32,000 bases of DNA from Geotalea daltonii FRC-32 (GCF_000022265.1 NC_011979.1:2790001-2822000), one strand, 5' to 3'. Counted from the first letter of the stretch, positions 2,869 through 23,168 are shown. Program-made: numbers and translations. Notes: a model not told the origin generated them from the sequence alone.

Positions 2869-2891
2869 AAATGATAAGAGGAGAAAATTAT

Positions 2892-3557
2892 ATGTCAGCT
2901 GATAAAGAAACCTTATTCAAGCAGTTGGCCGATGCGGTCGTGGATATGGACGAGGATCAGGCCGTAACCACAGCCGATGCGGTGGTTGCGGCAGGGCTTG
3001 ATGCCTACGAAGCCATCGAAAAGGGGCTCTCTGCCGGTATGGAGCGAGCCGGACAGCTCTTCGACGAAGAGGAATACTTCATTCCGGAACTGCTCATGTG
3101 TTCAGATGCCATGTATGCGGGCATGGATGTGCTCAAGCCCCATATCAGGCAGGATGCAGTGGCGGAAAAGCGGCGGGTAGTTATCGGCGTCATTCAGGGA
3201 GATACCCACGACATCGGCAAGAACCTGGTAAAGATCATGCTGGAGACATCCGGCTTCGAGGTGACCGACTTAGGAAGGGATATCCCGCCGGCACGTTTTG
3301 TCGATGCCGCCAAAGAGATCAAAGCGGACATCATTGCCCTTTCCACCCTGATGACCACCACCATGGACGGGATGGGGGAGGTTGTACGGCAGCTGAACGA
3401 CCAGGGGCTGCGGGACAAATTCAAGGTGATCGTCGGCGGCGGCCCAATCTCCCAAGGATTCGCCGACCGGATCGGCGCCGACGGTTATGCAATTAATGCT
3501 GCCGATGCCGTCCGTCTGGCCAGAAGGCTGACCTCTCCTGATGTGGCGGCAGCCTGA
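2892..3557 (+). CDS. Cobalamin-binding corrinoid protein (MtaC/MtbC/MtsB-like)
   Basis: B12-binding signature DxHxxG (DTHDIGKNLV), then SxL (ALSTLMTTT) and a GG (VIVGGGPIS). There is an N-terminal helical cap region. Start chosen at ATG 2892, behind AAGAGGAG, rather than the GTG at 2865. Confidence 0.85.
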   Translation: MSADKETLFKQLADAVVDMDEDQAVTTADAVVAAGLDAYEAIEKGLSAGMERAGQLFDEEEYFIPELLMCSDAMYAGMDVLKPHIRQDAVAEKRRVVIGVIQGDTHDIGKNLVKIMLETSGFEVTDLGRDIPPARFVDAAKEIKADIIALSTLMTTTMDGMGEVVRQLNDQGLRDKFKVIVGGGPISQGFADRIGADGYAINAADAVRLARRLTSPDVAAA

Positions 3558-4603
3558 TGGGCGAGGATAAAATGAAACCACTGGAGCGTCTTTCTGCTTA
3601 CGGCAAGGGGGAAACCATCGACCGGTTGCCATGTGTTCCCATTGTGGGAAATACGGCTGCCAGGGTGATCGGGGTAAAGGTTGGCCAATTCCGCGGCAAT
3701 GGGCCGCTGATCGCCCAGGCGCAGATTGCCGCTTACCAGCTGTTCGGCTACGACATCATTCGCATCTTCACCGATCTTTACACCCAGGCAGAAGCCATGG
3801 GGGCGAAGGTGCATTATCCTGAGGACGAAACTGCCTATCTTGAAGCTCCCGCCATCAATGACCTTGCTCATTTGGACCGTCTGCAGCCGGCGGACCCTTA
3901 TCGGGACGGAAATCTCCCGCACCACCTGGAGGCGATCGGAATTGCCGTGGACCGGCTAGGGACAGAAGTGGCGGTAACCGGGGCGATTACCTGCCCATTC
4001 ACCAATGCCTCGTTCCTGGTGGGGGCTGAGACCCTGGCGAGGCTGATGCTCAAGGAACCGGATAAGGTACACCGGCTTTGCGAGGTATCCCTTGAAACCT
4101 GTCTGCGCTATGCCGCCGCCATTATCGACGCAGGCGCTACGCCAAGTCTGACCGATGCCATGTCATCGTCAACGGTCATCAGTCCACGTCAGTTCAGGGA
4201 ATTTTCACTGCCGTATCTGAAACGGCTTATGGACTTCATCCACGGCAAAGGAAAGGGCGCCACCCTCCATATCTGCGGTAAAACGGCGAAGATCTGGGAA
4301 TCCATGGTGGAGGCAGGCGCTGACTGCCTCAGCATCGACAACGATGCCAGCCTTACCGAGGCAAAGCTGGCGGTGGGAGAGCGGGTGCGGCTGATGGGCA
4401 ATATCCATCCTTCTGCGGTGATGCTGCAGGGGACACCGGCAGATGTGCGCCGGGCTACCCTTTCATGTATCCGCGAAGCCCACGATAATCCTAAAGGCCT
4501 CATTGTTGCCTCGGGCTGCAGCCTCCCTACCGAGACACCTTTCCAGAACATTGCGGCCATGATGGAGACGGTGCGGGCCGTGGGATGGCCGGTGCGGTTT
4601 TAA
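3557..4603 (+). CDS. Uroporphyrinogen-decarboxylase-family (MtaA/CmuA/MtsA-like) corrinoid methyltransferase
   Basis: 348-aa ORF with URO-D-like length and layout. Zinc triad context H-x-C...C (ATLHICGK ... IVASGCSLP). The start overlaps the previous stop (TGATG); an alternative ATG lies at 3572 behind GAGGAT. Confidence 0.75.
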   Translation: MGEDKMKPLERLSAYGKGETIDRLPCVPIVGNTAARVIGVKVGQFRGNGPLIAQAQIAAYQLFGYDIIRIFTDLYTQAEAMGAKVHYPEDETAYLEAPAINDLAHLDRLQPADPYRDGNLPHHLEAIGIAVDRLGTEVAVTGAITCPFTNASFLVGAETLARLMLKEPDKVHRLCEVSLETCLRYAAAIIDAGATPSLTDAMSSSTVISPRQFREFSLPYLKRLMDFIHGKGKGATLHICGKTAKIWESMVEAGADCLSIDNDASLTEAKLAVGERVRLMGNIHPSAVMLQGTPADVRRATLSCIREAHDNPKGLIVASGCSLPTETPFQNIAAMMETVRAVGWPVRF

Positions 4604-4605
4604 TT

Positions 4606-4700
4606 CCCCCGCCCTTTATGGGAGGGGGTTAGGGGGAGGGCTCACATGCTACAATGCCATCCCCCTCTCCCTAACCCTCTCCCACCAGGGAAGAGGGGAC
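4606..4700. repeat. REP-like G/C-rich palindromic element between the two methyltransferase genes
   Basis: CCCCCGCCC-tttatg-GGGAGGGGG hairpin. Next comes GGTTAGGGGGAGGG (4628-4641) pairing with CCCTCTCCCTAACC (4663-4676), with one G.T position. It translates into the PLPNPLPPGKRG-type peptide typical of REP-derived false ORF extensions. Confidence 0.7.
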
Positions 4701-4720
4701 TTCTTGTAAGAGGTCTTTTT

Positions 4721-5743
4721 ATGAGTCTAAGTCCCAAGCAGCGCCTGCTGGATACAGTAAAGAAAAAGAAGGTCGACCGGCCGCCGGTAATCTGCACCGG
4801 CGGCATGATGAACGCTGCCATTGTCGATGTCATGGACAGAAGCGGGCATACTCTGCCCGAGGGGCACTTCAACAGCGATTTGATGGCCGCCATCGCCACC
4901 GATGTCCACAAGGATACCGGTTTCGAAAACCTGGGCATCCCTTTTTGCATGACCGTGGAGGCGGAGGTGCTCGGCAGCGACATCGACTTCGGCACCCTTG
5001 CCTGTGAACCGAAGATCGCTCGGGAACCATTCCCGTCGGTCAGGGATGTGGTATACCGGGATATTGACCGCATGCTCGGCAGCGGACGGATCCTAACGCT
5101 GGCCGGGGCAGCGGAGCGGCTGGCGAAGGCCCATCCCGACGTGCCGGTCATCGGCAGCGTCACCGGCCCCATCAGTACTGCGGCGTCCATTGTGGATCCC
5201 ATGCAGTTTCTCAAGGAACTTCGCAAGGAGCGCGAGGGGGCCAACAGGGTGCTGGATTATGTGAGTGACTTTCTTGTCGCTTTTGCCAGGATTTTGGTGG
5301 AGAGCGGCGCCACTGCCATCTGCATCGGCGACCCGACAGCCACCGGTGAGATTCTGGGACCGAAGATGTTTTCCGACTACGCCGTGACCTATCTCAACAA
5401 GGTGATTGACGGTATCCATGCCACTGGTGTGCCGGTCCTGGTGCATATCTGCGGCGAGATGAAGGCGGTCAAGCCCTCCATTCCACTCCTCCGTGCCGAT
5501 GCCATCAGTACCGACGCTTTCGTCAACCTGCGCCTTCTGAAAGAAGAATATCCGCAGCTGACTACCATGGGCAATGTCAGCACTTTTCTTCTGGAACTGG
5601 GAGACCCGGACAAGGTGGCTCGCCATACGGAAGGGCTGGTGCGCGAAGGCATCGATATCATTTCACCCGCCTGCGGTCTGAGCACCGCGTCACCGATTTC
5701 CAATATCCGGGCCATGACCTCGGTTGTGAAGGAGCCCGCCTAA
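4721..5743 (+). CDS. Uroporphyrinogen-decarboxylase-family (MtaA-like) corrinoid methyltransferase, second paralogue
   Basis: Start moved to ATG 4721 (MSLSPKQ, RBS AAGAGG) because 4646-4720 is REP sequence. Zinc triad context VLVHICGE ... IISPACGLS. Confidence 0.75.
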   Translation: MSLSPKQRLLDTVKKKKVDRPPVICTGGMMNAAIVDVMDRSGHTLPEGHFNSDLMAAIATDVHKDTGFENLGIPFCMTVEAEVLGSDIDFGTLACEPKIAREPFPSVRDVVYRDIDRMLGSGRILTLAGAAERLAKAHPDVPVIGSVTGPISTAASIVDPMQFLKELRKEREGANRVLDYVSDFLVAFARILVESGATAICIGDPTATGEILGPKMFSDYAVTYLNKVIDGIHATGVPVLVHICGEMKAVKPSIPLLRADAISTDAFVNLRLLKEEYPQLTTMGNVSTFLLELGDPDKVARHTEGLVREGIDIISPACGLSTASPISNIRAMTSVVKEPA

Positions 5744-5744
5744 G

Positions 5745-7415
5745 ATGGTAAATGTTCGTTTTCTTCCAGCCGATCGCTCCATCACCGTTGAAAAAGGGAC
5801 CACCATCCTGGAAGCGGCGCGGCTGGCCGGTGTCCTTATCGAATCCCCATGTAACGGAGCCGTGGTCTGCGGCAAATGTACAGTTTATCTGGACCCGGAC
5901 TCGTTGCCGCACATCGTCCGGCGCGGAGGCCATCACCTTTCCCAGCGACAGGAGCGGGCCGGGCAGGTTCTCTCCTGCGAGGCGGAGGTGATCGGGGATA
6001 TTGCTGTGGTCCTTCCAGAACTGGCGGAGCAGGATCTGAAAATAACCAGCCATGGCCGTGCCGTGGCCGTAGCCCTGGCGCCGTATGTCATCAAGGAATA
6101 CGTGGCGGAAAGGGATGTAACGCTGGTTTATCATGGAGCGGAAGTTGCCTTGGAGGAAGAAGGGGATACTGCAGGAGACGCATATGGTGTGGTGGTCGAT
6201 ATCGGTACGACTACCTTGGTCGTTTCCATCGTCGATCTGAATAATGGTGTGGAACTGGCCCATTCTTCGGCCCTCAATCCCCAGAGCCGCCATGCCCAGG
6301 ATGTCCTTTCCAGGATCAGGATCGCCTGTGACCAGAAGGGGCTCTCGGAGATGCGGTCCGGTGTGATCGGGGAGATCAACCGGTTGATCGATGAGATCGC
6401 AGGCAAGGCCGGGGTGCGACATGAGCGCATCTATGAGGTAATCTTCAGTGGTAATACCTGCATGCTCCACCTTGCTGCCGGCATTAATCCCCGTTCCCTT
6501 GGCCAGTATCCCTATAAGCCCGAACTGAACGGTGGCAATTGGCTCTCAGGGACAGAGGTGGGGCTTGCCATAGCAAAAAACGGTATCGTTTACCTGCCCC
6601 CCATCATTTCTGCCTACGTGGGGGCCGACATCACTGCCGGATTGCAGGCAGTACGGCTCCACGAGGAGCAGGGGACGGTTCTATTTGTCGACATCGGTAC
6701 CAACGGCGAGATGGCCATTGTCCATAACGGTAAGCTTTGGGCCACTTCCACCGCCGCGGGGCCAGCCTTTGAGGGAATGAACATCACCTTCGGCATGAGG
6801 GCGGGTGAGGGAGCCATCGAACGCTTTGTCATCCTCAAAGACGGCAATATCAGACTCAAGACCATCGGCAATGCTCCGGCTGTGGGCATCTGCGGCAGCG
6901 GTCTCATGGATATCGTCGCCGATCTGGTGGCCCACGGCATCATAACCAAAAATGGCAAGTTTGTTTCGCCTGATGAGCCCAATCTTTTTTCCCCACTTGC
7001 AGCGCGACTTATGAAAGTCGATGGCAAGCCGGTCTTCAGCCTGACCGATAAGGTTTACCTGTCCCAGAAGGACATTCGCCAGGTGCAGCTGGCCAAAGGA
7101 GCGATCCGGGCGGGGGTGGAGTTCCTGCTGCGCCATACGGGGGTAACGGCTGCTGTTCTGGACAAGGTGCTCATTGCAGGTTCCTTCGGTTTCCATCTTA
7201 CCGCCGAAAGCCTTGTCACCATTGGGCTTCTACCTCCCGAAACAGCAGGTTGCATCGAATTTGTCGGCAACACCGCCAAAAGCGGCGGCGAAGCTTTTCT
7301 CCTCAATCGTGACAGTCGCATGGAGATGCAGCAACTGGTAGCAGCGGTTCATGTGGTGGAACTTGTCAACTGTCCCGATTTCGATCGCATTTTCATAGAT
7401 TGCCTTTCCTTTTGA
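5745..7415 (+). CDS. Reductive activase of corrinoid enzymes (RACE/RamA-like; [2Fe-2S] ferredoxin + ASKHA ATPase domain)
   Basis: N-terminal plant-type ferredoxin Cys pattern (SPCNGAVVCGKCTV ... VLSCEA). ASKHA phosphate motifs VVVDIGTTTLVVS and LFVDIGTNGEMAIV. 556 aa, AAGGAG RBS. Confidence 0.8.
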   Translation: MVNVRFLPADRSITVEKGTTILEAARLAGVLIESPCNGAVVCGKCTVYLDPDSLPHIVRRGGHHLSQRQERAGQVLSCEAEVIGDIAVVLPELAEQDLKITSHGRAVAVALAPYVIKEYVAERDVTLVYHGAEVALEEEGDTAGDAYGVVVDIGTTTLVVSIVDLNNGVELAHSSALNPQSRHAQDVLSRIRIACDQKGLSEMRSGVIGEINRLIDEIAGKAGVRHERIYEVIFSGNTCMLHLAAGINPRSLGQYPYKPELNGGNWLSGTEVGLAIAKNGIVYLPPIISAYVGADITAGLQAVRLHEEQGTVLFVDIGTNGEMAIVHNGKLWATSTAAGPAFEGMNITFGMRAGEGAIERFVILKDGNIRLKTIGNAPAVGICGSGLMDIVADLVAHGIITKNGKFVSPDEPNLFSPLAARLMKVDGKPVFSLTDKVYLSQKDIRQVQLAKGAIRAGVEFLLRHTGVTAAVLDKVLIAGSFGFHLTAESLVTIGLLPPETAGCIEFVGNTAKSGGEAFLLNRDSRMEMQQLVAAVHVVELVNCPDFDRIFIDCLSF

Positions 7416-8525: not shown

Positions 8526-9005
8526 ATGAACAAAGCAGACCTGCTCCAGTGCATTGTCGCCCAGCTCAGCCACGATCTTGAGGTGCTCTTCAATGCTGCC
8601 AAGACCGCCCATGAAGCTGCCACCCACAGCGAAAACCTGCCGGACAACAAATATGACACTCTCGCTCTTGAAGCATCATATGTGGCACAGGGACAGGCAA
8701 ACCGGGCCAGTGAAATCCGGCAGGCAATGGAAGTTTACAAGCAGCTGAAGCTCCTTTCCATGGATGGTGGTGAAATCCGGCTCACTGCACTGGTCAGGCT
8801 CGAAGCAGAGGACGGTGCATCAAAGACCATCTTTATCGGACCCCTTGAAGGGGGTCTGAAGATTGCATTCGGCCGCGCCGAGGTGGTGGTTATTACTCCA
8901 GGTTCTCCACTGGGAAGTGAGCTTATGGGTAAAACAATCGGTGACGCCGTTCAGGTGGGCATCGGCCCAAACCGGATCGAATACGAAATCGCCGAGGTTT
9001 GCTGA
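8526..9005 (+). CDS. GreA/GreB-family (Rnk-like) transcription factor homologue
   Basis: Start at ATG 8526 behind GGTAGAGGA. The N-terminus is a predicted coiled coil. The C-terminal part (ITPGSPLGSELMGKTIGDAVQV) resembles the GreA C-terminal domain motif SPIGxALxGKxxGD. Confidence 0.65.
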   Translation: MNKADLLQCIVAQLSHDLEVLFNAAKTAHEAATHSENLPDNKYDTLALEASYVAQGQANRASEIRQAMEVYKQLKLLSMDGGEIRLTALVRLEAEDGASKTIFIGPLEGGLKIAFGRAEVVVITPGSPLGSELMGKTIGDAVQVGIGPNRIEYEIAEVC

Positions 9006-11594: not shown

Positions 11595-12113
11595 TTATAG
11601 AGCTATAATCATCATGGGAACCATCATGAGGAGCATCATGCCTCCTCCCCACCAGCGCCATTTCCCGCTGCCAAAATGATGTGAAAAAAAACCATGCTCC
11701 TCATGTTCGGAACTCTTTGCTTCTCCGACCATGGCATTTATTTCATAACTGAGTACTTCTGCAGATTTTCCAACGTCAGCGATTGTAACCGCTATCTTAT
11801 ATTCCCCAGGTGTATCGAAGGACCAGGAATCCAAATACTCGTCCTCCAGAACATCAACTTCTCGGCTCAGCACCTGCCTGTTAGTACCTTTTTCATAAAC
11901 CTGAAGGGCCACCTTTCTGTCAGTGACTACTTGTCCATCTTTCTCAAGCTTCAATGCAAAAGTAACTTTACTACCTGCCGATGGCGAGTCAGGGGCAAGC
12001 CTGATAGCCGCTTTCATGTTGTTTTGCGCAAAGCTCTGTTCCATTGCCAGAGCGGTCACTGGTGTAACTGAAAGGAATACTGCCAACATCAGGTAATGAT
12101 AAAAAAGAGCCAC
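11595..12113 (-). CDS. Exported FixH/YtkA-like beta-sandwich protein with His-rich linker and Met-rich C-terminal helix (putative metal-binding)
   Basis: Start re-assigned to GTG at 12113, with GGAGG 8 nt upstream. The ORF-track TTG start at 12164 lies inside a -24/-12 element. Signal-like ALFYHYLMLAVFLSVTPVTALA, then SSEHEEHGFFSHHFG, then WWGGGMMLLMMVPMMIIAL. Confidence 0.6.
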   Translation of the reverse strand: MALFYHYLMLAVFLSVTPVTALAMEQSFAQNNMKAAIRLAPDSPSAGSKVTFALKLEKDGQVVTDRKVALQVYEKGTNRQVLSREVDVLEDEYLDSWSFDTPGEYKIAVTIADVGKSAEVLSYEINAMVGEAKSSEHEEHGFFSHHFGSGKWRWWGGGMMLLMMVPMMIIAL

Positions 12114-12147: not shown

Positions 12148-12163
12148 AGCAAAGGGCATACCA
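12148..12163 (-). promoter_or_regulatory. Candidate sigma-54 promoter (minus strand) TGGTAT-N5-TTGCT
   Basis: The reverse complement of 12148-12163 is TGGTATGCCCTTTGCT. GG and GC are separated by exactly 10 nt. It lies about 24 nt upstream of the RBS of the 11595-12113 gene. Confidence 0.55.
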
Positions 12164-12220
12164 ATATAAGATCACTTTAATTTCAAATACCTATGCAATA
12201 GTGAGGTTTTATTTGATGCA

Positions 12221-12248
12221 GAAAAATCTACATCCCTGCAGGATATTC
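12221..12248. promoter_or_regulatory. Putative enhancer (UAS): two GAATATTC-like boxes 20 bp apart
   Basis: GAAAAATC (12221-12228, 6/8 match) and GGATATTC (12241-12248, 7/8 match). They lie 57 nt from the minus-strand -24 element. Confidence 0.4.
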
Positions 12249-12322
12249 CACGATGTCAGATTGATCAGTGTTTTTTGCATCGCTCGGCTCTTGTCACCGA
12301 ATCGTGTGCTAGGATCTTCAGG

Positions 12323-12541
12323 GTGACTGATGCCTTCGACGCCCACAGTTGAGCCGGATTTTACCTGTATGGGCATGAACTGTATGGGCATGAAGAATGC
12401 GGATGAATGATCTAGGCAGAGAGGGGGAAGTATTTTGACCCAAAAGTAGTAGATGCATTTCTGCAAATAGGGCGTAAGCAAATAGAGGCAATCCAAATAA
12501 GATTTTGCACTGAGTGGAGAATATTCAACATACATGGGTGA
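12323..12541 (+). pseudogene. Decayed 3' remnant of an HD-GYP/HD-domain gene
   Basis: One frame reads VTDAFDAHS*AGFYLYGHELYGHEECG*MI*AERGKYFDPKVVDAFLQIGRK...*. This matches the xDxFDAxTSxRPY ... G.xFDPxVVxAF end of HD-GYP domains but carries three in-frame stops. The upstream part is in another frame. Confidence 0.6.
12365..12394. repeat. Perfect 15-bp tandem duplication (CTGTATGGGCATGAA x2)
   Basis: 12365-12379 is identical to 12380-12394. It lies inside the HD-GYP remnant and encodes LYGHE twice. Confidence 0.9.
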
Positions 12542-12565
12542 TATTCTTTATCCTGAGGAATATTT
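12519..12565. promoter_or_regulatory. Putative enhancer (UAS): three GAATATTC-like boxes at 20/19-bp phasing
   Basis: GAATATTC (12519-12526, exact), TGATATTC (12539-12546, 6/8) and GAATATTT (12558-12565, 7/8). The last box is 60 nt upstream of the TGGCAG at 12626. Confidence 0.55.
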
Positions 12566-12625
12566 TTCAGGACTGCTTTTAAAAAAATTCATATAATTCC
12601 AATAAGTTACAACAATTAATCAAGC

Positions 12626-12641
12626 TGGCAGATTTTTTGCT
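12626..12641 (+). promoter_or_regulatory. Candidate sigma-54 promoter TGGCAG-N5-TTGCT
   Basis: TGGCAGATTTTTTGCT has one mismatch to TGGCAC-N5-TTGCW with correct GG-N10-GC spacing. It sits upstream of the HMA/ABC operon. The ORF-track TTG start at 12637 is the -12 element itself. Confidence 0.7.
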
Positions 12642-12699: not shown

Positions 12700-13113
12700 A
12701 TGAGAAAACGGATTATAAATATAGCTTTGGTACTTGCCGTGGTTGCGCTGATGGTATTTCTCGCTTTTCACGTCAAGATCAAACGGCCTGTACAGGAAGT
12801 TGCCGTGTTAAAGACCATCGGCATGACCTGTGGGAGTTGTGCAGGGAAAATTGAGAAAGCCTTGATGCGTTTGCCCGGAACGGCTGGAGTGGAGGTGGAT
12901 GTGGAAGGGGGATGGGTGCTGGTCGGCTATCAATCAACATCTGCAAAGCCTGATACATTTGCTGCAGCAGTTAACAATGAAGGGTTCAGGAGCTGGCTGA
13001 TGGAAAAAATGCCCATTGCCGAGTTCAAAAAGGTTGCAGGGCGGGATTTCGGGTCTAAGGCGGTAAAGTCTTCATACTGCGGCAATGGTGGATGCGGCAG
13101 CAATCGAAACTAA
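12700..13113 (+). CDS. Membrane-anchored heavy-metal-associated (HMA) domain protein with Cys-rich C-terminal tail
   Basis: Start at ATG 12700, with AGGTGA 8 nt upstream; alternatives are 12652 and 12682. MRKR plus a TM helix, then an HMA fold with GMTCGSCAGKIEKAL. The tail is YCGNGGCGSNRN. Confidence 0.75.
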   Translation: MRKRIINIALVLAVVALMVFLAFHVKIKRPVQEVAVLKTIGMTCGSCAGKIEKALMRLPGTAGVEVDVEGGWVLVGYQSTSAKPDTFAAAVNNEGFRSWLMEKMPIAEFKKVAGRDFGSKAVKSSYCGNGGCGSNRN

Positions 13114-13126
13114 ACGGAGGAACTAA

Positions 13127-13543
13127 ATGTACGCAAGGATAAACATCACCCCCCATCATCTGGTAGTCACATTGATGACGCTGTTGGTTCTGTTGGCAAC
13201 CATATCCTGGGGGGCGACGCAGGGGGCCGATACGGTAACCGTGCTGAATGCGGAGAAGCTGTCGTGTGGCAGTTGTGCTGCGAAGATCACCAACGCACTT
13301 GAACAAAAAGAAGGAGTCGTTTCGGTTGAAGTAGACATCGCTGCAGCAAAAGTGACCGTGTGGCATGATTTGAAAAAAATTGCCCCTGGTCAACTCGCTT
13401 CAGTGGTTACTGATACTGGATATCCAAGTAATGTAGTGCGTACTGTCGCAAAGGATGTGTTTGACAGGGAAACGGGCAAGACGCCCCAGGCACAGAAAAA
13501 TGCAGGCGGTGGTTGTGCCTGTTGCAATAAGAACAGAAAGTAA
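13127..13543 (+). CDS. Exported HMA-domain protein with Cys-rich C-terminal tail (paralogue of previous)
   Basis: Signal-like LVVTLMTLLVLLATISWGATQGA, an HMA motif LSCGSCAAKITNAL and a GGGCACCNKNRK tail. RBS is ACGGAGGA. Confidence 0.75.
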   Translation: MYARINITPHHLVVTLMTLLVLLATISWGATQGADTVTVLNAEKLSCGSCAAKITNALEQKEGVVSVEVDIAAAKVTVWHDLKKIAPGQLASVVTDTGYPSNVVRTVAKDVFDRETGKTPQAQKNAGGGCACCNKNRK

Positions 13544-13561
13544 AACAAAGGGAGTATAGCC

Positions 13562-14092
13562 ATGGGAAAAGCCGCACGAAAACAAAACAGGGTTAAGGAG
13601 GATGTACAGGTGATCGGTATGAAAAACATTCGAAGCAAAGGTTTACATCTGGGTATTGTTGCCGGGATATTGGTTGTTCTGGGAGTAGCGACGGTATTTG
13701 CTCTGAACATACCTGGTTTCTCAAGTGTCCAGAAGGTAAAGCCGGTAAATGGAGTGGTAAGCATCCCGGTGGCAAAGGTTTCAGACGGCAAGGCACATTT
13801 TTACCAGTTCAAAGATAGCGGCAAAGATATAAGCTTCTTTGTGGTCAAAGACTCTGATGGCGCCATCCATACCGCCTTTGATACCTGTGATGTCTGTTAC
13901 AAGGCAAAAAAGGGATATGAGCAGAAAGACGACTTTATGGTGTGCAAAAACTGTAATCAACGCTTTGCCATAGCGAAAATAGGTCCGCACGCTATTGGCG
14001 GCTGCAATCCCACCTACCTCCCCAGCGCTTTTGTCGGAGCAAACGTCATTGTCAAGGCAACCGATCTTCAGTCCGGTGCCAAATACTTCTAA
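13562..14092 (+). CDS. DUF2318/FtrD-like membrane-anchored Cys-cluster protein
   Basis: One TM helix, then CDVCYKAKKGYEQKDDFMVCKNCNQRF ... GGCNPTYLP. This is the CxxC...CxxC...GGCNP pattern I associate with DUF2318 proteins, which accompany FtsX-type ABC genes (for example in the Campylobacter P19/Ftr1 locus). The family call is from memory. Confidence 0.6.
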   Translation: MGKAARKQNRVKEDVQVIGMKNIRSKGLHLGIVAGILVVLGVATVFALNIPGFSSVQKVKPVNGVVSIPVAKVSDGKAHFYQFKDSGKDISFFVVKDSDGAIHTAFDTCDVCYKAKKGYEQKDDFMVCKNCNQRFAIAKIGPHAIGGCNPTYLPSAFVGANVIVKATDLQSGAKYF

Positions 14093-14104
14093 GCGGGATA
14101 GAAA

Positions 14105-15265
14105 ATGAAACTGCATACCATATCCATCAACAACCTTAAACGCCGGAAAACTAAAATGGCTTTTCTCACCATCGGGCTGATGGTGGGAATCGCCACAATT
14201 GTCACGCTCGTGACACTTACCCGGTCCATGTCCAGCGACATTGAACGGAAGATGGATGAATTTGGAGCCAACATCCTCATTACTCCCCAGAGTAACGGCC
14301 TCTCCATGAATTACGGGGGCATAAGCCTTGGGGGCGTCACCTTCGACCAGCGTGAGATAGGCGAAGAGGATCTGGCCAGGATCAAAACCATCAAGAACAG
14401 CAAGAATATCTCTGCCGTTGCGCCAAAGGTACTGGGGGGAATCAAGGTAGGTTCTCACGATGTGCTGCTGGTCGGAGTGGACTTTGACAGTGAATTGAAA
14501 ATGAAACAGTGGTGGCAGATCTTTGGCGATGCCCCGAAGGCCGACAATGAAGTGTTACTGGGAAGCGATGCCTCAAAGATCCTCGATGCTAGCTCCGGTG
14601 ATACCATCCGGATCAAGGAGGAAACCTTCAAGGTTGCCGGAGTGCTTGACCAGACCGGCTCACAGGATGACTCTCTCGTCTTCGCCTCTCTTGGCAAAGC
14701 ACAGAAAATTCTCGGCAAAGAAGGAAAGATCACCTTGGCGGAGGTGGCGGCTCTTTGTTCCGGGTGTCCCATTGGCGACATGGTAACCCAGATTGCCGAA
14801 AAGCTCCCCGATGCCAAGGTCTCGGCAATCCAGCAGGTGGTGGAAGGGCGCCTCAAGGCACTGGACCAGTTCAAACGGTTTTCCTATGCCATGGCAGGGG
14901 TAGTTGTTTTTATCGGTTCCCTGATTGTCTTTGTGACCATGATGGGAAGCGTCAATGAGCGCACGACCGAGATCGGTGTTTTCAGGGCGATAGGCTTTCG
15001 CAAGAGCCACATCATGCGGATCATTCTACTGGAAGCAGTACTTGTCAGCCTGCTGGCAGGAATCCTGGGCTATGCTGCCGGCATGGGGGGGGCCAAACTG
15101 GCTCTGCCTTTCATGGCTGAAAGCAAGAATGCACACCTCATCTGGGACAGTACTGTAGCTGCCGGTTCAATCGGATTAGCCGTAATGCTGGGCCTGCTGG
15201 CCAGTCTCTATCCAGCGCTGCATGCCAGCAAGATGGACCCGACGGAAGCCCTGCGGGCGCTTTGA
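14105..15265 (+). CDS. ABC transporter permease, FtsX/MacB type with periplasmic domain
   Basis: 386 aa. An N-terminal TM is followed by a roughly 230-aa extracytoplasmic domain and three C-terminal TMs, with RAIGFRKSHIMRIILLEAVLVSLLAG (FtsX core) and a C-terminal DPTEALRAL. Confidence 0.85.
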   Translation: MKLHTISINNLKRRKTKMAFLTIGLMVGIATIVTLVTLTRSMSSDIERKMDEFGANILITPQSNGLSMNYGGISLGGVTFDQREIGEEDLARIKTIKNSKNISAVAPKVLGGIKVGSHDVLLVGVDFDSELKMKQWWQIFGDAPKADNEVLLGSDASKILDASSGDTIRIKEETFKVAGVLDQTGSQDDSLVFASLGKAQKILGKEGKITLAEVAALCSGCPIGDMVTQIAEKLPDAKVSAIQQVVEGRLKALDQFKRFSYAMAGVVVFIGSLIVFVTMMGSVNERTTEIGVFRAIGFRKSHIMRIILLEAVLVSLLAGILGYAAGMGGAKLALPFMAESKNAHLIWDSTVAAGSIGLAVMLGLLASLYPALHASKMDPTEALRAL

Positions 15266-15266
15266 T

Positions 15267-15385
15267 GGGACGCGGCTTTTGCGCAATAGCTGCGTAAGTC
15301 TTCGGAACTGCTTGTGCGACGTAGCTGGGCTACGTCTCCGCACATTTCCTTGACAGCCTTGCTCTTGCATCAAAATCCACGTCCC
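15267..15385. repeat. Hairpin-centred intergenic element inserted between permease and ATPase genes
   Basis: TIR-like GGGACGCGG (15267-15275) and CCACGTCCC (15377-15385). The core CTTGTGCGACGTAGctgggCTACGTCTCCGC is shared with the MITE core CTTGTGCGACGTACcgatGTACGTCTCCGC. Confidence 0.6.
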
Positions 15386-15416
15386 TGGAGAGATCAGTTA
15401 GTTAAAAGGAAAATAA

Positions 15417-16091
15417 ATGAAACTCATCGAAATACAAAACGTAAAGAAACACTACACTAGCGGAGAAGACGTTGTCGAAGCCTTGCGCGGTGTTGATATC
15501 AGCATAGAAGCCGGTGAATTTATCACCATAATGGGGCAGTCAGGCTCCGGTAAGAGCACCTTGCTCTCAGTTCTGGGAGGAATGAACCATCCGACTTCCG
15601 GAGATGTCGAGATGGCCGGCGTACGTCTTTATGACCTGCCAGGGGAAAAGCTGGCCGACTTCCGGGCACAAAACCTTGGGTTTGTTTTCCAATCATTTCA
15701 CCTGATCCCGTACCTGACCGCTGCAGAGAATGTCATGCTGCCGTTAGCAATTGTCAAAATGGCTACCAGTGCAAAGAGGGCCGCGGCCCGCCAAGCCCTT
15801 GAAAGAGTCGGTCTGGGGAACAAGCTTGGCCGGCTCCCCAACCAATTATCTGGGGGTGAGCAGGAACGTGTTGCCATTGCCAGGGCTATTGTCAACAACC
15901 CGCATATACTTTTGGCTGATGAGCCGACCGGCAACCTGGATTCCAAGACCAGCGAAGAGGTCATGGCATTATTCAGGGAGTTGAATAATGCCGGACAGAC
16001 AGTCGTGATGGTAACGCATAATGCTGAAAACGGGGCATACTCTGACAGAACCATAAGCTTAAGGGACGGCATGGTTGTTGGTTCTGTTTGA
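15417..16091 (+). CDS. ABC transporter ATP-binding protein (MacB/LolD-like)
   Basis: Walker A GQSGSGKST, signature LSGGEQERV, Walker B LLADEPTGNLD and an H-loop VTHN. Confidence 0.9.
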   Translation: MKLIEIQNVKKHYTSGEDVVEALRGVDISIEAGEFITIMGQSGSGKSTLLSVLGGMNHPTSGDVEMAGVRLYDLPGEKLADFRAQNLGFVFQSFHLIPYLTAAENVMLPLAIVKMATSAKRAAARQALERVGLGNKLGRLPNQLSGGEQERVAIARAIVNNPHILLADEPTGNLDSKTSEEVMALFRELNNAGQTVVMVTHNAENGAYSDRTISLRDGMVVGSV

Positions 16092-16100
16092 GGTGGTCTA

Positions 16101-16523
16101 GTGAATCTGTTCCCTGTCAGAGACCTTGTCATTTTGGTGGTCTGTAGCAACCGGGATGTTCTAGAGGTTATAGAAAGGCTTTTGGGCCATTTGGAGATCA
16201 ATGTCACATGCGTCATGAGCACGGATGCAGCGCTTGTCATGCTGCAGACTGAAACCTACAGCGCCATGATCAGCGATCACAAAATGAAAGACTTTAACGG
16301 GCGGGAATTCAGCCGGACGGTGCGGCAACTATTTCCTGCTCTCAACGTTGTGTTGTTTGAAGGTAACACCAGCTCACAGGTCATGGATCTGTTTTTGGGC
16401 CCGGAAGTGTCGGAAATTTCGGAAGTACAAAACCAAGCTTGCAGTCTTGGGGACATGTTGATGAGCATTCTGAGGGGCGAAAGGGGAAAAACCTTTCTTC
16501 TGAGGCAGACATCAACGAGATGA
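16101..16523 (+). CDS. Receiver-like (possibly pseudo-receiver) single-domain protein
   Basis: 140 aa, GTG start behind GAGGTGG. The layout is REC-like (VILVVCSNRD ... YSAMISDHKMKDFNGREF ... NVVLFEG). The usual acidic DD pair after beta-1 is replaced by CS. Weak call. Confidence 0.4.
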   Translation: MNLFPVRDLVILVVCSNRDVLEVIERLLGHLEINVTCVMSTDAALVMLQTETYSAMISDHKMKDFNGREFSRTVRQLFPALNVVLFEGNTSSQVMDLFLGPEVSEISEVQNQACSLGDMLMSILRGERGKTFLLRQTSTR

Positions 16524-16539
16524 TATGGAGGGAAAACCA

Positions 16540-16959
16540 ATGGATGCCATGGAAATTAGTGCCTCTGCCTTGACCGCCGAAAGAACCCGGATGAACCTGA
16601 TTTCATCTAACCTTGCCAACGCCAATTCCACCAGGACAGATGAAGGTGGCCAATACCGACGCAAAGATGCGGTATTTGCCACTGTTCTTGATGGTGCAAG
16701 CGCCAATATGGAGGGAGGGACAGAGGTTATTGGAGTCGAGGTTGTCAATATTATCGAGGACCAGTCTCCCCCTAGGCTTCAATACGACCCTGGACACCCA
16801 GACGCAAGAGAGGATGGTTATGTTGCATATCCGAATGTCAATATTGTTGAGGAAATGGCCGACATGGTGACTGCGACGAGAGCATATGAAGCGAATACCA
16901 CTGCTATGAAAGCTGGCATGGATATGCAGATGAAAGCCCTTGAGATCGGCTCAAAATGA
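16540..16959 (+). CDS. flgC: Flagellar basal-body rod protein FlgC homologue (orphan copy)
   Basis: Start at ATG 16540, 8 nt after GGAGGG. The N-terminus ISASALTAERTRMNLISSNLANANSTRT..GGQYRRKD matches the rod-protein signature. The C-terminus DPGHPDA..DGYVAYPNVNIVEEMADMVTATRAYEAN is typical of FlgC. Confidence 0.8.
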   Translation: MDAMEISASALTAERTRMNLISSNLANANSTRTDEGGQYRRKDAVFATVLDGASANMEGGTEVIGVEVVNIIEDQSPPRLQYDPGHPDAREDGYVAYPNVNIVEEMADMVTATRAYEANTTAMKAGMDMQMKALEIGSK

Positions 16960-16999
16960 TCATGACTGACTGGGCTAAGAGTATGAATTTGCGGAACAC

Positions 17000-17572
17000 A
17001 TGAAAGTAATATTCGTTACAATGATCATGCTGTTATTTCTTCCGATTGTAGCACTGGCAGATACGCAGCTGCCGGTCCAGAACGGCGTCATAACTTCTGG
17101 TGTTGGCTGGCGACTCGATCCATTCGGTAGCGGAAGGGCCATTTTGCACCATGGGATCGATATAGCCGTACCGGTCGGAACCCCTGTTCGTGCCACCCGC
17201 AAGGGTCAGGTTGTCTTTTCGGGCATACGTGGCGGATATGGATCGACCGTTATAGTAGAACATGCCAATGGCGACCGTACCCTCTATGGTCACAACTCTT
17301 TGTTGCGTGTGAAGGCTGGCGACATGGTCGAATCAGGTACAGTCGTGGCTTTTTCAGGCAACACGGGTAGATCCACAGGACCCCATGTGCACTTCGAACA
17401 GTTGCCAAGCGGCCGCGCCCTAACAGAACAGGCTGAAACAGAAAATATTGAGATGCCCCAAATTGCTACCAGTACTGATCAGCGATACAGGCTGGAACAA
17501 CAGATGGATGAATCGGTGAGTTCCATCCTCAGGACCATCAACAGGAACGGAACAGCAGGACAAGGCGGTTGA
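17000..17572 (+). CDS. Secreted M23-family metallopeptidase
   Basis: Signal peptide MKVIFVTMIMLLFLPIVALA. HxxxD (HHGIDIAV) and HxH (GPHVHFE) zinc motifs, plus GNTGRSTGPH. Confidence 0.85.
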   Translation: MKVIFVTMIMLLFLPIVALADTQLPVQNGVITSGVGWRLDPFGSGRAILHHGIDIAVPVGTPVRATRKGQVVFSGIRGGYGSTVIVEHANGDRTLYGHNSLLRVKAGDMVESGTVVAFSGNTGRSTGPHVHFEQLPSGRALTEQAETENIEMPQIATSTDQRYRLEQQMDESVSSILRTINRNGTAGQGG

Positions 17573-17683
17573 GGCTTAGAACATCTAAGCAATGTAGCTA
17601 CCAATCCACGAACAGAAGGAAGGCTGCAATGAGACCGACTCAAAGTTGACGGATTAACCGGAAAGGCTCAGGATCACAGATAA

Positions 17684-18814
17684 ATGCAAATTCAGAAGTT
17701 ATCAATAACCGCATTTCGCCCAATCATCCTGGCTTGCTTTCTTGTTTGCATAAGCCTTCTCCACTATCTGACACCGCTTCATCTCCCTTATCTTCACGAT
17801 ATTTTCCAGCGTCTCTACTATCTGCCGATAATTCTCGCTGCCCTATGGTTTGGGTTGCGTGGTGGGTTAATCTGCTCAATCCTTGTCAGCATTGCTTATG
17901 CACCGCATCTTCTTTTCCAGTGGGGCGGCCACCTGACCCTGGAAATGGAGAAATATCTTGAAATTATGCTGTATAACATTGTAGGGGGTGTGACTGGCCT
18001 GCTGTCCCAGCGGGAGCGGGAGCGCACAGTGGAGCTCCAGAAAACTGCCCGTGGGCTGGAGGAGTCATACCAGAAGCTGCAAAACCAATCTGAGCGTATC
18101 ATTATCATCGAGGAACAGTTGCGACGGGCTGAGAAGCTGTCTACCTTGGGAGAAATGGCCGCGGTACTGGCCCACGAGATCCGAAATCCACTCGGTTCAA
18201 TTCGTGGAACAGCCGAGATATTGAAGGACGACTACAAGCCCGGTGACCCGAAACAGGAATTCATCGACATACAGATCAAGGAGACCGAGCGTCTGAACCG
18301 GGTGGTGGAGGATTTTCTCCATATGGCACGACCACAGCCAGCTGACATGCAGCTCTGTCCGATTCAGGAAGAATTGGAAACAATAGTGGCTCTGCTTTCC
18401 AATGACGCCAGGGGACGACAAATTTCACTTGTGCTGAAACCGGCATCCGCCCCTGTAATAATCAGTGCCGACGGTGAAAAGCTCCGACAGGCTTTTCTGA
18501 ACATTATCATCAACTCCTTGCAGGCAACACCGCCGGGGGGCAGCGTAACCATAACGACAACCCCCTATGAGGCAGGCTCATGTGAAATCTGCTTCCGTGA
18601 TAGTGGCCCAGGAATAGATGCAGAGACGATGGACCGCATTTTCGAGCCTTTTTTTACTACCAAACCGGATGGTACCGGTTTGGGCCTGGCTATTACCAAG
18701 AAGATCATTGAAAGTCATGGCGGAACAATGCAGGTGGAAAGTGAAGTTGGTCACGGAACTATAGTCAACGTCATCTTGCCGATGCAAAATGCTTCTGACG
18801 GAGGATTGCGGTGA
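17684..18814 (+). CDS. Sensor histidine kinase with 4-TM membrane-embedded input domain (no obvious periplasmic domain)
   Basis: About 110 N-terminal residues form closely spaced hydrophobic helices. These are followed by a coiled coil, an H-box LAHEIRNPLGSI, an N-box INSLQA, and G-boxes DSGPGI and GTGLGLA. Confidence 0.85.
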   Translation: MQIQKLSITAFRPIILACFLVCISLLHYLTPLHLPYLHDIFQRLYYLPIILAALWFGLRGGLICSILVSIAYAPHLLFQWGGHLTLEMEKYLEIMLYNIVGGVTGLLSQRERERTVELQKTARGLEESYQKLQNQSERIIIIEEQLRRAEKLSTLGEMAAVLAHEIRNPLGSIRGTAEILKDDYKPGDPKQEFIDIQIKETERLNRVVEDFLHMARPQPADMQLCPIQEELETIVALLSNDARGRQISLVLKPASAPVIISADGEKLRQAFLNIIINSLQATPPGGSVTITTTPYEAGSCEICFRDSGPGIDAETMDRIFEPFFTTKPDGTGLGLAITKKIIESHGGTMQVESEVGHGTIVNVILPMQNASDGGLR

Positions 18815-20169
18815 AAGGAAAGATTCTTGTAATTGACGACGACAATTCGCTACGGCGGGTGCTGGAATACAACCTCAAAGAGGAGGGTTATGAAGTCCAG
18901 GCTGCCTCATCGGGTGAGGAAGGCTTGTTTTTATTCGGACAATCTCAGCCTGACCTGGTTATTACCGATATGAAAATGTCGGGTATGGATGGACTGATGG
19001 TGCTCAAGTCAATCAAAGAGCGTTCACCGGAGACTTTGGTGATAATCATAACCGCATTCGGAACGGTGAACATAGCAGTGGAGGCCATGAAAGCGGGGGC
19101 TTACGACTATATCACCAAACCCTTCAACAGGGATGAACTCAAACTGATTGTCCTGAAAGCGCTTCAGTTCAATGGGCTGGCTGAGGAGAACAAGCGGCTG
19201 AAGAGCCAGTTGTCGGATAAAACTGATTTTCGCACTATTATCGGCACTTCAAAAGAAATGGAGAAGGTTTTCGATGTGATTCGCAAGGTAGCCGACACTG
19301 AGGCTGCCATTTTGATTACAGGCGAATCCGGTACGGGAAAGGAGCTGGTCGCCCGCTCCATCCATGCTAACAGTTCAAGGAGAGAAGCTCCATTTATAGC
19401 CATCAACTGTGCCGCCATTCCCCGTGACTTGTTGGAGAGTGAACTTTTTGGCCACGTAAAAGGAGCATTTACCGGAGCACTGAGAGACAAAACCGGCAAA
19501 TTTCAATTGGCGGATGGCGGAACACTTTTCCTTGATGAAGTCGGCGAACTTCCGCTGGAATTACAGCCAAAGTTGCTCAGGGCTCTACAGGAGAAGGAGG
19601 TTGAACCTGTGGGAGGCACTAAGGTTCAGAAAATAGATGTCAGAGTGGTTTCAGCTACTAACGTCAATATAGACAAGGCTATAGCTAACGGTTCATTCCG
19701 TGAAGACCTTTATTACCGCTTGGCAGTCATACCGGTACACCTCCCCTCCCTACGCGAACGACGCAAAGACATCCCATTACTGATCAAATACTTTTGTGGC
19801 AAGCATGGCAGCGAGAATGTCACCCTCGAAAATAGCGCCCTTGAGACTTTGGTGATGCATTCCTGGCCGGGAAACGTACGGGAGCTGGAAAATACCATCG
19901 AACGTCTGCTCATTATGCGAAACGGTGATATGATTTCTGTTGATGACCTGCCGGATAAACTTCGCGAGAAACGTGCTCAGGGGACAGCAGTAATAAAACT
20001 GCCCGATGAAGGGTATCCTCTTGAGCAATTGGAGAGGGAAGTGGTCGTTGCCGCCCTGGAACGCAGCTCATGGAATCAGACAGCGGCTGCCCGCTTCCTG
20101 AGAATTCCCCGACATACGCTTATCTACCGAATGGAGAAATATGGCATTACTCCGCCGGGTCAGAAATAG
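18811..20169 (+). CDS. Sigma-54-dependent response regulator (NtrC/ZraR family enhancer-binding protein)
   Basis: The GTG start overlaps the kinase stop (GTGA). REC domain (ILVIDDD ... LVITDMKMSGMDG), AAA+ domain with GESGTGKE and the GAFTGA loop, and a C-terminal Fis-type HTH (AAARFLRIPRHTLIYRMEKYGI). Confidence 0.9.
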   Translation: MKGKILVIDDDNSLRRVLEYNLKEEGYEVQAASSGEEGLFLFGQSQPDLVITDMKMSGMDGLMVLKSIKERSPETLVIIITAFGTVNIAVEAMKAGAYDYITKPFNRDELKLIVLKALQFNGLAEENKRLKSQLSDKTDFRTIIGTSKEMEKVFDVIRKVADTEAAILITGESGTGKELVARSIHANSSRREAPFIAINCAAIPRDLLESELFGHVKGAFTGALRDKTGKFQLADGGTLFLDEVGELPLELQPKLLRALQEKEVEPVGGTKVQKIDVRVVSATNVNIDKAIANGSFREDLYYRLAVIPVHLPSLRERRKDIPLLIKYFCGKHGSENVTLENSALETLVMHSWPGNVRELENTIERLLIMRNGDMISVDDLPDKLREKRAQGTAVIKLPDEGYPLEQLEREVVVAALERSSWNQTAAARFLRIPRHTLIYRMEKYGITPPGQK

Positions 20170-20247
20170 GCATATTCCAAAATTTTTTAAAAGCCTTAAT
20201 CTTTGTGAATAAGAGCCGAAAGGTATCTATGGATGGGCTGCAGTGAC

Positions 20248-20275
20248 GAATATTCCTACCTTGTGGGGAATATTC
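20248..20275. promoter_or_regulatory. Putative enhancer (UAS): two exact GAATATTC palindromes 20 bp apart
   Basis: GAATATTC at 20248-20255 and 20268-20275, in the contexts cGAATATTCC and GGAATATTCt. They lie 58 nt upstream of the TGGCAC at 20334. Confidence 0.6.
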
Positions 20276-20333
20276 TCCACGCCTTGACATTCCGACCGCA
20301 ATAATAAATCTGCAAAATCAGTAAGATATGAGT

Positions 20334-20349
20334 TGGCACAACCTGTGTA
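20334..20349 (+). promoter_or_regulatory. Candidate sigma-54 promoter TGGCAC-N5-GTGTA (deviant -12)
   Basis: The -24 TGGCAC is perfect. The -12 position reads GT instead of GC. Placement relative to the UAS and to the cusC-like start (20392) mirrors the other three promoters. Confidence 0.45.
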
Positions 20350-20391: not shown

Positions 20392-21717
20392 ATGAAAACA
20401 CTACACACGTTTGCTTTACTACTTCTATTGGCTGTTTCTCCATCCATGGTGTGGGCGGAAGAGGGTAAGCCGCCTGCCGAGGATCTCTCACGCCTCATCG
20501 CTACCGCGCTTGATAAAAATCCGGAACTCAAATCTTCCCAGGCCCGCTGGCAGATGTTTGCCAACCGGGTCAAACAGGCGTCGGCCCTTGAAGATCCCAT
20601 GTTCATGTTCAAACTGCAGAACCTGATGGCAAAGGAACCTTTTGCCTTCGATAAAGACCCACAGACCTCCAAGGTAATCGGCATATCCCAACAACTTCCC
20701 TTTTGGGGCAAGCGCGCTATCAAACAGGAAGTGGCACAATATGAGGCGGAGTCCTATAAATGGGCCATCGAAGAACGGAAACTTGAACTGGCCCGCATGG
20801 TGAAGGAGACATACTACCAGATCTACGCTGTGGACAAGTTTCTACAGATCATCGACAAGAACCTGCAGATACTGACCGATTTCATCACCATTGCCGAGTC
20901 CAAGTATTCAGTCGGCCAGGGGGTGCAGCAGGATATTTACAAGGCGGGTTTGGAAAAATCCAAAATGCTCGACATGCAGATAACCCTGAAACAGCAACGA
21001 CGGAGCCTGGAGGCGAATCTCAACTATCTGCTCTACCGGCCCGATACGACCCCCATTGGTAGAATCCCCGATTTCGATTTACCGAAACCGTCCCTGACAG
21101 CCGAACGACTGAAAGAAGCTGCTTTCGCCAAAAGGCCCCAGGTAAAAAGCCTGATCAGCCTGGCCAATAAGGGAGATGCCTCCCGCCGCCTGGCGCAAAA
21201 GGAGTACTACCCCGACTTCAATCTCTCCTTCGAATACATGTTCCGTGAGGCGGTAAATACTGAAATGATAAAAGATCCGGGCGACAACATGTTTACCGTC
21301 GGCGTCACGTTCAACCTGCCACTGCAGCGTGAGCGCCGACAGGCCATGGTTGCCGAAGCGACTTCCGAAACGAACATGTCTTTGGAGGAGCTCAACGGCC
21401 TGAAGAACAGCATCACCTATTCCATTCACGATATTCTGGCCCAACTGGAACGCCGGCAGAAACTGGTTGAACTGTACAAGGGGGGAATTATTCCCCAGGC
21501 TGAACAATCACTGGAATCGGCCATCATCAGCTACCGTGTGAACAAGGTGGACTTTCTCACCCTGCTCGACGGGCGGGTCAACCTGTTCAATTACGAGCGG
21601 GAACTGTACGACTCACAGGCTGAATACATGATGAAGCTGGCCCAGTTGGAAGCGCTTGTCGGTGGTGAATTGCCGGGGCCGGCTGGCCAGACTCCAGCTT
21701 TGACTGCGGTCAAGTAG
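20392..21717 (+). CDS. cusC: TolC-family outer-membrane efflux protein (CusC/CzcC-like)
   Basis: Start at ATG 20392 (MKTLHTFALLLLLAVSPSMVWA signal; GGGAG RBS). It has a two-repeat coiled-coil/beta-barrel OMF layout and is first gene of an OMF-MFP-RND triad. Confidence 0.8.
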   Translation: MKTLHTFALLLLLAVSPSMVWAEEGKPPAEDLSRLIATALDKNPELKSSQARWQMFANRVKQASALEDPMFMFKLQNLMAKEPFAFDKDPQTSKVIGISQQLPFWGKRAIKQEVAQYEAESYKWAIEERKLELARMVKETYYQIYAVDKFLQIIDKNLQILTDFITIAESKYSVGQGVQQDIYKAGLEKSKMLDMQITLKQQRRSLEANLNYLLYRPDTTPIGRIPDFDLPKPSLTAERLKEAAFAKRPQVKSLISLANKGDASRRLAQKEYYPDFNLSFEYMFREAVNTEMIKDPGDNMFTVGVTFNLPLQRERRQAMVAEATSETNMSLEELNGLKNSITYSIHDILAQLERRQKLVELYKGGIIPQAEQSLESAIISYRVNKVDFLTLLDGRVNLFNYERELYDSQAEYMMKLAQLEALVGGELPGPAGQTPALTAVK

Positions 21718-21773
21718 CCACCGACTTCATCCGTTCAGAACAGAAACAATTATCCATATATCGAGGTACGACC

Positions 21774-23159: not shown

Positions 23160-23168
23160 AACATACCG

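Follow-up and report, generated by a model that had tools for sequence, protein, structure and literature searches.

The stretch of DNA analyzed here, referred to below as the window, comprises 32,000 nucleotides of Geotalea daltonii FRC-32 (NC_011979.1:2790001-2822000) and holds an island of the Geobacteraceae that we infer to be of the copper/silver resistance type. Five transcription units concern us: unit a (11595-12113, minus strand), encoding a secreted YtkA-like protein that contains a His-rich stretch and ends in a Met-rich tail; operon b (12700-16091, on the plus strand like all that follow), encoding two HMA proteins, an FtrD-like (DUF2318) protein, an FtsX/MacB-type permease, and an ATP-binding cassette (ABC) ATPase; operon c (20392-26607), consisting of cusC, cusB, cusA, and a gene for a small Gly/Tyr/His-rich lipoprotein (26446-26607); operon d (26962-29798), encoding His/Met-rich periplasmic, 91-residue secreted coiled-coil, Germane-domain lipoprotein, cytochrome c'-like, and YHS-domain proteins; and operon e (30148-30852), encoding two small secreted coiled-coil proteins that are paralogs of each other (30148-30462 and 30514-30852). 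Between operons b and c lie the genes for a sensor histidine kinase (17684-18814, plus strand; His-rich membrane N-terminus, HisKA, and HATPase_c) and for an NtrC-type enhancer-binding response regulator (18811-20169, plus strand; receiver, AAA+ domain with GAFTGA, and HTH_8 with a recognition helix starting IPRH). Each of the five units is preceded by two or three copies of a palindrome and a predicted sigma-54 (-24/-12) promoter, and we consider it likely, from the sequence evidence set out below, that the five belong to a single NtrC-type two-component sigma-54 regulon in which the island regulator acts through the palindromes. The first-pass annotation had proposed this layout for units a through d; all four are there, but the fifth (29948-30084) was missed.

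The 8-mer GAATATTC, by which nine boxes had been recognized in regions a to d, makes up only the core of a longer, 16-bp palindrome, TGnAGAATATTCTnCA, as revealed by an alignment of 17 sites from the window and four unrelated loci; all nine box positions and all four promoter positions hold in the sequence, but the boxes are not equivalent, one of them (b2) having decayed. Exact copies of GAATATTC occur five times in the window (12519, 20248, 20268, 23307, and 26830) against 0.44 expected, a count of at least five being reached in none of 100 shuffles; box pairs 19 to 21 bp apart number 3 against 0.015 expected when at most 2 mismatches are allowed over the pair, and 8 against 0.34 when at most 3 are allowed. 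The earlier contention that the exact intergenic copies are unlikely to be due to chance is borne out by these counts, and every good pair lies inside one of the named intergenic regions; the exact copy at 23307, also spotted earlier, falls within cusA. A cross-validation matrix, built only from eight non-window sites in four unrelated metagenomic or metagenome-assembled genome (MAG) loci, places window boxes in ranks 1 to 3, recovers all 8 full-core boxes while missing the decayed b2, and yields 16 window matches scoring at least 8 where 3.6 are expected; this same matrix exposed the fifth region, with its pair at 29952 and 29983.

Counted from the T of the promoter TGG, in promoter orientation, i) region a has TGCAGAAAAATCTACA at -65 (12217-12232; the box at 12221 has 2 mismatches) and TGCAGGATATTCCACG at -85 (12237-12252), scoring 15.5 and 11.6 with the matrix from other organisms, upstream of promoter Pa, TGGTATGCCCTTTGCT (12148-12163, minus strand, predicted start about 12137); ii) region b has TGGAGAATATTCAACA at -107 (b1, 12515-12530), the decayed b2 at -87 (about 12535-12550, core G-ATATTC, the 2 mismatches of the box at 12539 being equal to a 1-nt core deletion), and TGAGGAATATTTTTCA at -68 (b3, 12554-12569), upstream of Pb, TGGCAGATTTTTTGCT (12626-12641, plus strand, predicted start about 12652); iii) region c has TGACGAATATTCCTAC at -86 (20244-20259) and TGGGGAATATTCTCCA at -66 (20264-20279), upstream of Pc, TGGCACAACCTGTGTA (20334-20349, plus strand, predicted start about 20360); iv) region d has AGTAGAATATCCTTCG at -85 (26806-26821) and TGTTGAATATTCTCTA at -65 (26826-26841), upstream of Pd, TGGCATGACAAATGCT (26895-26910, plus strand, predicted start about 26921); and v) region e has TAGAGAATATCCTCCA at -117 (29948-29963) and TGGAGACTATTCTATA at -86 (29979-29994), scoring 16.8 and 17.5 and conserved in 4 genomes, upstream of Pe, TGGCACGCATGTTGAT (30069-30084, plus strand, predicted start about 30095). 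All five regions carry their two or three palindromes 65 to 120 bp upstream of the promoter, at a spacing of 20 or, in region e, 31 bp.

When both strands of the window are scanned with an approximate sigma-54 matrix, the three best matches are Pd (15.9), Pb (15.7), and Pa (15.1), each about 65 to 68 bp downstream of a box pair, and the fourth best is Pe. Relative to the consensus TGGCAC-N5-TTGCW, Pa, Pb, and Pd have their GG and GC doublets exactly 10 bp apart; Pc has GT and Pe has GA at -12, so that T-14 and G-13 are kept and C-12 is gone, and because of its GT Pc ranks only 14th in the window (score 9.8). The bare TGG-N9-TGC core is common, with 39 matches in the window, and the argument therefore rests on the full element and its fixed position relative to the boxes. 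Pd is conserved in 6 species, GGCA and TTG of Pb are invariant in 8 species, and TGGCAYGCAAGTTGAW of Pe is conserved in three related contigs (L166, L167, and L169). The cusC promoter reads TGGCAY-N5-GTGTA, with TGGCA and TGTA (that is, TGGCA-N7-TGTA) invariant in seven species while the flanks have diverged; the HMA-operon promoters of relatives end in TTGTT, TTGAT, or TTGTA, and e-type promoters in TTGAT or TTGAA. Because T-14 and G-13 are kept and the C-less ends are conserved across species, C-12 appears to be dispensable in a conserved, class-specific way. The upstream region of Escherichia coli pspA contains TGGCACGCAAATTGTA, with TGT in place of TGC at -12, which we take to be the well-characterized PspF/sigma-54 promoter and which therefore offers a precedent for GT at this position. 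The -12 element of cusC had been called deviant; with TGTA invariant in seven species and resembling the pspA -12 element, it is better described as a conserved variant.

We think it unlikely that cusCBA is independent of sigma-54, in which case TGGCAC at 20334 would be incidental, expression of the pump genes would rely on transcripts that run on from the regulator gene or start at an unrecognized sigma-70 or extracytoplasmic function (ECF) promoter, and the c boxes would serve some other purpose, e.g., autoregulation. Such an arrangement would account for the poor score of Pc, and the distance from the end of the regulator gene to box c1 is indeed only 78 bp, without a predicted terminator; but the invariance of the -24/-12 element amid diverged flanks, the agreement of the Pc box offsets with those of Pa and Pd, and the presence of TGGCACGCAAATTGTA upstream of pspA all argue for a sigma-54 promoter, and the coding strand of region c shows no sigma-70-like site. 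The same holds for regions a and b, while the corresponding scans of regions d and e do not exceed chance level; nor do terminators and sigma-70 promoters, scanned in all five regions, rise above chance. A conserved block, ATCAG-N4-ATA, is found upstream of Pc only.

Phylogenetic footprinting supports the shared enhancer and -24/-12 architecture. Eight orthologous Geobacteraceae contigs (L163-L170), with regulators 83 to 86% identical to that of the window, keep the synteny and have boxes and promoters at matching offsets in surrounding intergenic DNA that has diverged; in alignments of the cusC, 155-residue-protein, and HMA upstream regions from 6 to 8 Geobacteraceae, the predicted boxes and promoters are 18- to 33-fold enriched in invariant columns (p = 5e-10 to 1e-12). 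Offsets are conserved by class: -85/-65 for the cusC and 155-residue-protein units, -108/-88 for the HMA unit, and -120/-89 for the e-type unit. The five window regions themselves align at boxes and promoters and nowhere beyond, and since these elements are all they have in common, the regions are not recent copies of one another; an origin of the five by duplication was rejected on the same ground. Much farther afield, two loci with regulators about 50% identical, L008 from a deltaproteobacterial MAG and L085 from a metagenome, retain, in this order, a kinase, a regulator, two boxes, a sigma-54 promoter, and HMA/FtrD-like/FtsX/ABC genes; another (L004) carries, ahead of the gene for its own regulator, two exact boxes together with a perfect promoter, TGGCACGGACCTTGCT; and in a fourth (L037) the boxes lie directly 3' of the regulator gene.

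The 18811-20169 protein has everything expected of an NtrC-type response regulator: a receiver with its Asp (DMKMSGMDG; Response_reg, 2.2e-32), an AAA+ domain with Walker A (GESGTGKE), GAFTGA, and Walker B (LFLDEVGEL) motifs (Sigma54_activat, 5.3e-74), and a Fis-type helix-turn-helix (HTH_8, 5.7e-14). It is 99% identical to its Geotalea toluenoxydans counterpart, and its best solved relatives are Aquifex NtrC-family proteins. It falls below every named NCBIfam equivalog cut-off (AtoC, NtrC, and ZraR). Orthology to AtoSC was rejected even though this is the best-scoring named model (AtoC, 485.6 against a cut-off of 714 bits; AtoS, 233.7 against 646), as was orthology to ZraSR (ZraR, 391.6 against 760 bits; ZraS, 218.5 against 479), which also has a periplasmic sensor domain that the kinase appears to lack: the N-terminal part of the kinase is embedded in the membrane and matches no domain above the Pfam cut-off.

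This protein had been named as the candidate activator, and indirect sequence evidence now points the same way. It is a complete enhancer-binding protein and the only DNA-binding regulator identified among the annotated open reading frames (ORFs) of the island; the distant minimal cassettes hold just a kinase and a regulator of this type beside the boxes; and a box pair is found nearby in 7 of 9 loci whose regulator has an (I/V)PRH recognition helix, compared with 1 of 86 others, (I/V)PRH being present in all 120 of the closest homologs among the matches listed. A scan of GTDB species representatives with the regulator returned homologs of at most 54% identity, mostly Acidobacteria-type paralogs with an ISRR helix and other sites, which we used as a negative set only. 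The boxes also have the features of NtrC-type enhancers, namely at least two dyad sites upstream of the promoter, helix-face periodicity, and conservation together with the regulator. The palindrome is very probably the site to which the island regulator binds.

Several points weigh against this assignment. The analysis is computational throughout, and binding, transcription starts, and rpoN dependence are predictions. The closest JGI metagenome homolog among the matches listed (L083, 69% identical, with an identical helix-turn-helix) has no boxes within 6 kb of its gene; a second locus (L139) has no boxes nearby, and a third (L084) has a single pair, within the regulator coding sequence, although the targets of these three regulators may lie elsewhere. 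The distances from box to promoter have a periodicity of 10.5 to 11 bp (R = 0.60, reached by 0.1% of random sets), a test made weak by the mutual non-independence of the distances. The sigma-54 matrix was assembled from consensus frequencies and is approximate; the C that is canonical at -12 is missing from Pc and Pe, and on sequence alone Pc scores at background level. No convincing integration host factor (IHF) site that would account for DNA bending was found in the 57-nt spacer: matches to the IHF consensus WATCAANNNNTTR almost all have 2 mismatches and inconsistent positions, with one 1-mismatch match in region e. Finally, rpoN lies outside the window, and its presence is documented for Geobacter sulfurreducens and G. 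metallireducens, not for this genome; attempts to obtain an rpoN null mutant of G. sulfurreducens did not succeed.

One could therefore imagine that the palindromes bind some other protein whose gene lies elsewhere in the genome, be it a repressor that responds to metal or a different enhancer-binding protein, and that the adjacent regulator has different targets. The boxless L083 homolog with its identical recognition helix is what such a scheme would lead one to expect, box binding by the island regulator is a prediction, and two-component systems are numerous in Geobacter (the number of putative sensor kinases reported for G. metallireducens, for example, is 83); but the minimal distant cassettes and the tracking of boxes with the (I/V)PRH helix speak for the adjacent regulator, no second DNA-binding regulator was identified among the annotated ORFs of the island, and a fixed place ahead of sigma-54 promoters is typical of activator sites and not of operators, so that we regard a different binding protein as improbable. 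It is far less credible still that the layout has no function, arising by chance in AT-rich intergenic DNA or by copying of a duplicated or mobile promoter segment: the spacers are indeed 60 to 75% A+T (against 47% for the window) and cusA too contains an exact GAATATTC, but shuffle and Markov controls exclude chance, the five regions align at boxes and promoters only, and these elements are kept across species and phyla where the surrounding DNA is not.

If the island regulator does act through the palindromes, the membrane kinase would sense metal stress and phosphorylate the regulator; regulator dimers would sit on the tandem palindromes by means of the Fis-type helix-turn-helix, as the comparative evidence suggests; the dimers would assemble into an active AAA+ oligomer; and the oligomer would loop across the 57-nt AT-rich spacer to the closed sigma-54 holoenzyme bound at the promoter, using ATP and the GAFTGA loop for promoter opening. 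NtrC-family enhancer-binding proteins bind phased dyad sites about 70 to 150 bp upstream of sigma-54 promoters, and oligomer assembly, contact with the holoenzyme, and ATP- and GAFTGA-dependent promoter opening are established for the family. Transcription of operon b may continue across 16101-20169, where the receiver-only protein, the rod-like protein, the M23 peptidase, the kinase, and the regulator are encoded; since no terminator or sigma-70-like site beyond chance was found between 15200 and 17750, positive autoregulation by read-through from Pb would be plausible.

A close mechanistic parallel is NtrC (GlnG) at glnAp2 of E. coli and Salmonella, to whose oligomerization and DNA looping the proposed mechanism may be likened. 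Both systems have a receiver-AAA+-Fis-type helix-turn-helix regulator, tandem dyads of about 16 to 17 bp ending in TG...CA, and a -24/-12 promoter; but NtrC sites read TGCACC-N5-GGTGCA rather than TGnAGAATATTCTnCA and lie at about -108/-140, compared with the much closer -65/-85 here, the NtrC signal is nitrogen rather than the metal stress proposed here, and our regulator falls short of the NtrC equivalog. ZraSR-zraP (HydHG) of the same hosts is likewise a metal-responsive, sigma-54-dependent two-component system driving a small periplasmic protein and its own operon; unlike ZraSR, to which it is not orthologous, the present system has a kinase with no detected periplasmic sensor domain, a much larger predicted regulon of five promoters that includes a resistance-nodulation-division (RND) pump and a MacB-type ABC system, and small secreted proteins without a ZraP/Spy-type Pfam match. 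PspF-pspA of E. coli resembles Pc and several HMA-operon promoters of relatives in having TGT for TGC at -12, but PspF lacks a receiver domain, its activity is governed by the binding of PspA, and its sites and signal differ. CusRS-cusCFBA of E. coli also has a two-component system that adjoins, and presumably controls, a CusCBA-type pump (on CusS, see PMC10100754); CusR, however, is an OmpR-family sigma-70 activator, in contrast to the AAA+ sigma-54 activator and -24/-12 type pump promoter here. NorR-norVW (PMC2831303) has more than two (three) enhancer sites per sigma-54 promoter, as does region b; unlike the latter, in which one of three boxes has decayed, NorR uses GT-N7-AC sites and senses nitric oxide via a GAF domain.

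The regulon is well supported but ordinary in kind. No description of the motif, of a sigma-54-controlled cus or HMA/DUF2318 system, or of a Geobacter metal regulon was found in the literature, most subscription journals and RegPrecise being outside the search; on this incomplete coverage, we class it as a so far uncharacterized regulon of the NtrC/sigma-54 type. It yields a concrete, testable map of regulation in a type of metal-resistance island found widely among the Geobacteraceae, organisms used in metal bioremediation; assigns the motif TGnAGAATATTCTnCA and an (I/V)PRH helix signature to a previously unnamed subfamily of NtrC-type regulators; and would mean that sigma-54 control, and not the OmpR- or MerR-type control that is usual, applies to a CusCBA pump and an HMA/FtrD-like/MacB-type ABC system. 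Conserved sigma-54 promoters without the -12 cytosine would also be missed by prediction tools that demand GG-N10-GC.

We wish to raise, tentatively, the further possibility that one regulator drives three conserved promoter classes differing in both -12 element and enhancer position; these may be TGC with enhancers at -65/-85; TGT at -65/-85 (cusC) or TGT/TGA at -88/-108 (HMA operon); and TGA at -89/-120. If so, the C-less -12 variants would be selected features, not decayed promoters, and could set the threshold, the basal leak, or the order of induction of sequestration, ABC export, and RND efflux.

The analysis also corrects two start codons and removes spurious ORFs. The TTG "starts" listed at 12164 and 12637 overlap, as had been noticed, promoter elements (-24 in Pa and -12 in Pb, respectively); the likely start of unit a is GTG 12113, preceded by a ribosome-binding site, GGAGG, at 12126-12122, and that of operon b is ATG 12700, while cusC starts at ATG 20392. 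The listed ORFs 12209-12535 and 29824-30093 are spurious, the former being AT-rich regulatory DNA and the latter AT-rich non-coding spacer, both holding enhancer boxes. In related islands, homologs of unit a directly precede the kinase gene. A copper (CsoR) meta-regulon described in Firmicutes (PMC4938975) includes DUF2318 and HMA proteins, which fits a copper/silver role for the island. The His/Met-rich proteins encoded at 11595 and 26962 were considered as paralogs and rejected because BLASTP shows no similarity; a ZraP/Spy-like identity for the small secreted proteins was dropped for want of Pfam support; and an Rfam scan of the window gave no matches.

Region b appears to have undergone binding-site turnover, judging by the loss of a b2 core base and the presence of b3 at -68: in the alignment with eight relatives, b1 and b2 correspond to the boxes at -108/-88, and b3 is found in this genome only. 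Box b3 sits in a 22-nt palindrome, TCCTGAGGAATATTTTTCAGGA (12551-12572), flagged as terminator-like by the scan, which could be the leftover terminator of a decayed HD-GYP gene, instead of or besides an enhancer site. A remnant of such a gene, an HD-GYP phosphodiesterase pseudogene with three in-frame stops, occupies 12308-12493 (plus strand) and aligns to residues 274-332 of the 340-residue product of an intact gene beside the HMA operon in relatives (L166, 2377-3399; E = 6e-7); a transglutaminase-like gene of the relatives is absent from this site, where unit a is found instead. The N-terminus of the window kinase (17690-18037) is homologous to that of the HD-GYP protein of relatives (33% identity over 119 residues, E = 6e-17), the two having LLHYxTP, RLYYLP, and AAxWFGLRG motifs in common, and this looks like a common His-rich membrane sensor module that would feed both the sigma-54 pathway and cyclic di-GMP turnover. 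Also within the kinase coding sequence, TGGAGGATTTTCTCCA (18306-18321) has a palindrome score of 15.0, near the null maximum; it encodes VEDFLH, recurs in L166 and L170, and is probably a coding coincidence, the alternative being an internal site.

Upstream of box d1, a perfect 21-nt inverted repeat, TATATAGTTTCCATCCGGAAA / TTTCCGGATGGAAACTATATA (26619-26639 / 26786-26806), encloses 146 nt and ends 4 nt before the box; it does not align with the d regions of relatives and may be either a structured region or a small element that has inserted here. In a Desulfuromonadaceae MAG without cusCBA (L167, 16144-16667), two divergent units of boxes and promoter lie 5 kb from the regulator gene, one of them facing an epimerase gene and a gene of unknown function; regulon membership therefore differs between genomes. 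An Acidobacteria MAG (L006, about 8720-8745) has a perfect 20-bp palindrome, GTTGTCCCATATGGGACAAC, upstream of a cusCBA-like pump, and the adjoining regulator is 53% identical to ours with an ISRR helix, which suggests a sister regulator subfamily that uses another site. In the window, the interval that separates the ABC transporter genes from the kinase gene (16101-17572) encodes the receiver-only protein, a 144-residue protein with flagellar rod N- and C-terminal motifs, and the M23 peptidase, an odd content for a metal operon, syntenic in most related islands, some of them without the rod-like gene. Upstream of the island, 3-7415 encodes a nitrogenase-like oxidoreductase component pair, a B12-binding protein, two URO-D/MtaA-like methyltransferases, and a RACo corrinoid activase; this cluster for corrinoid methyl transfer has no connection with the regulon.

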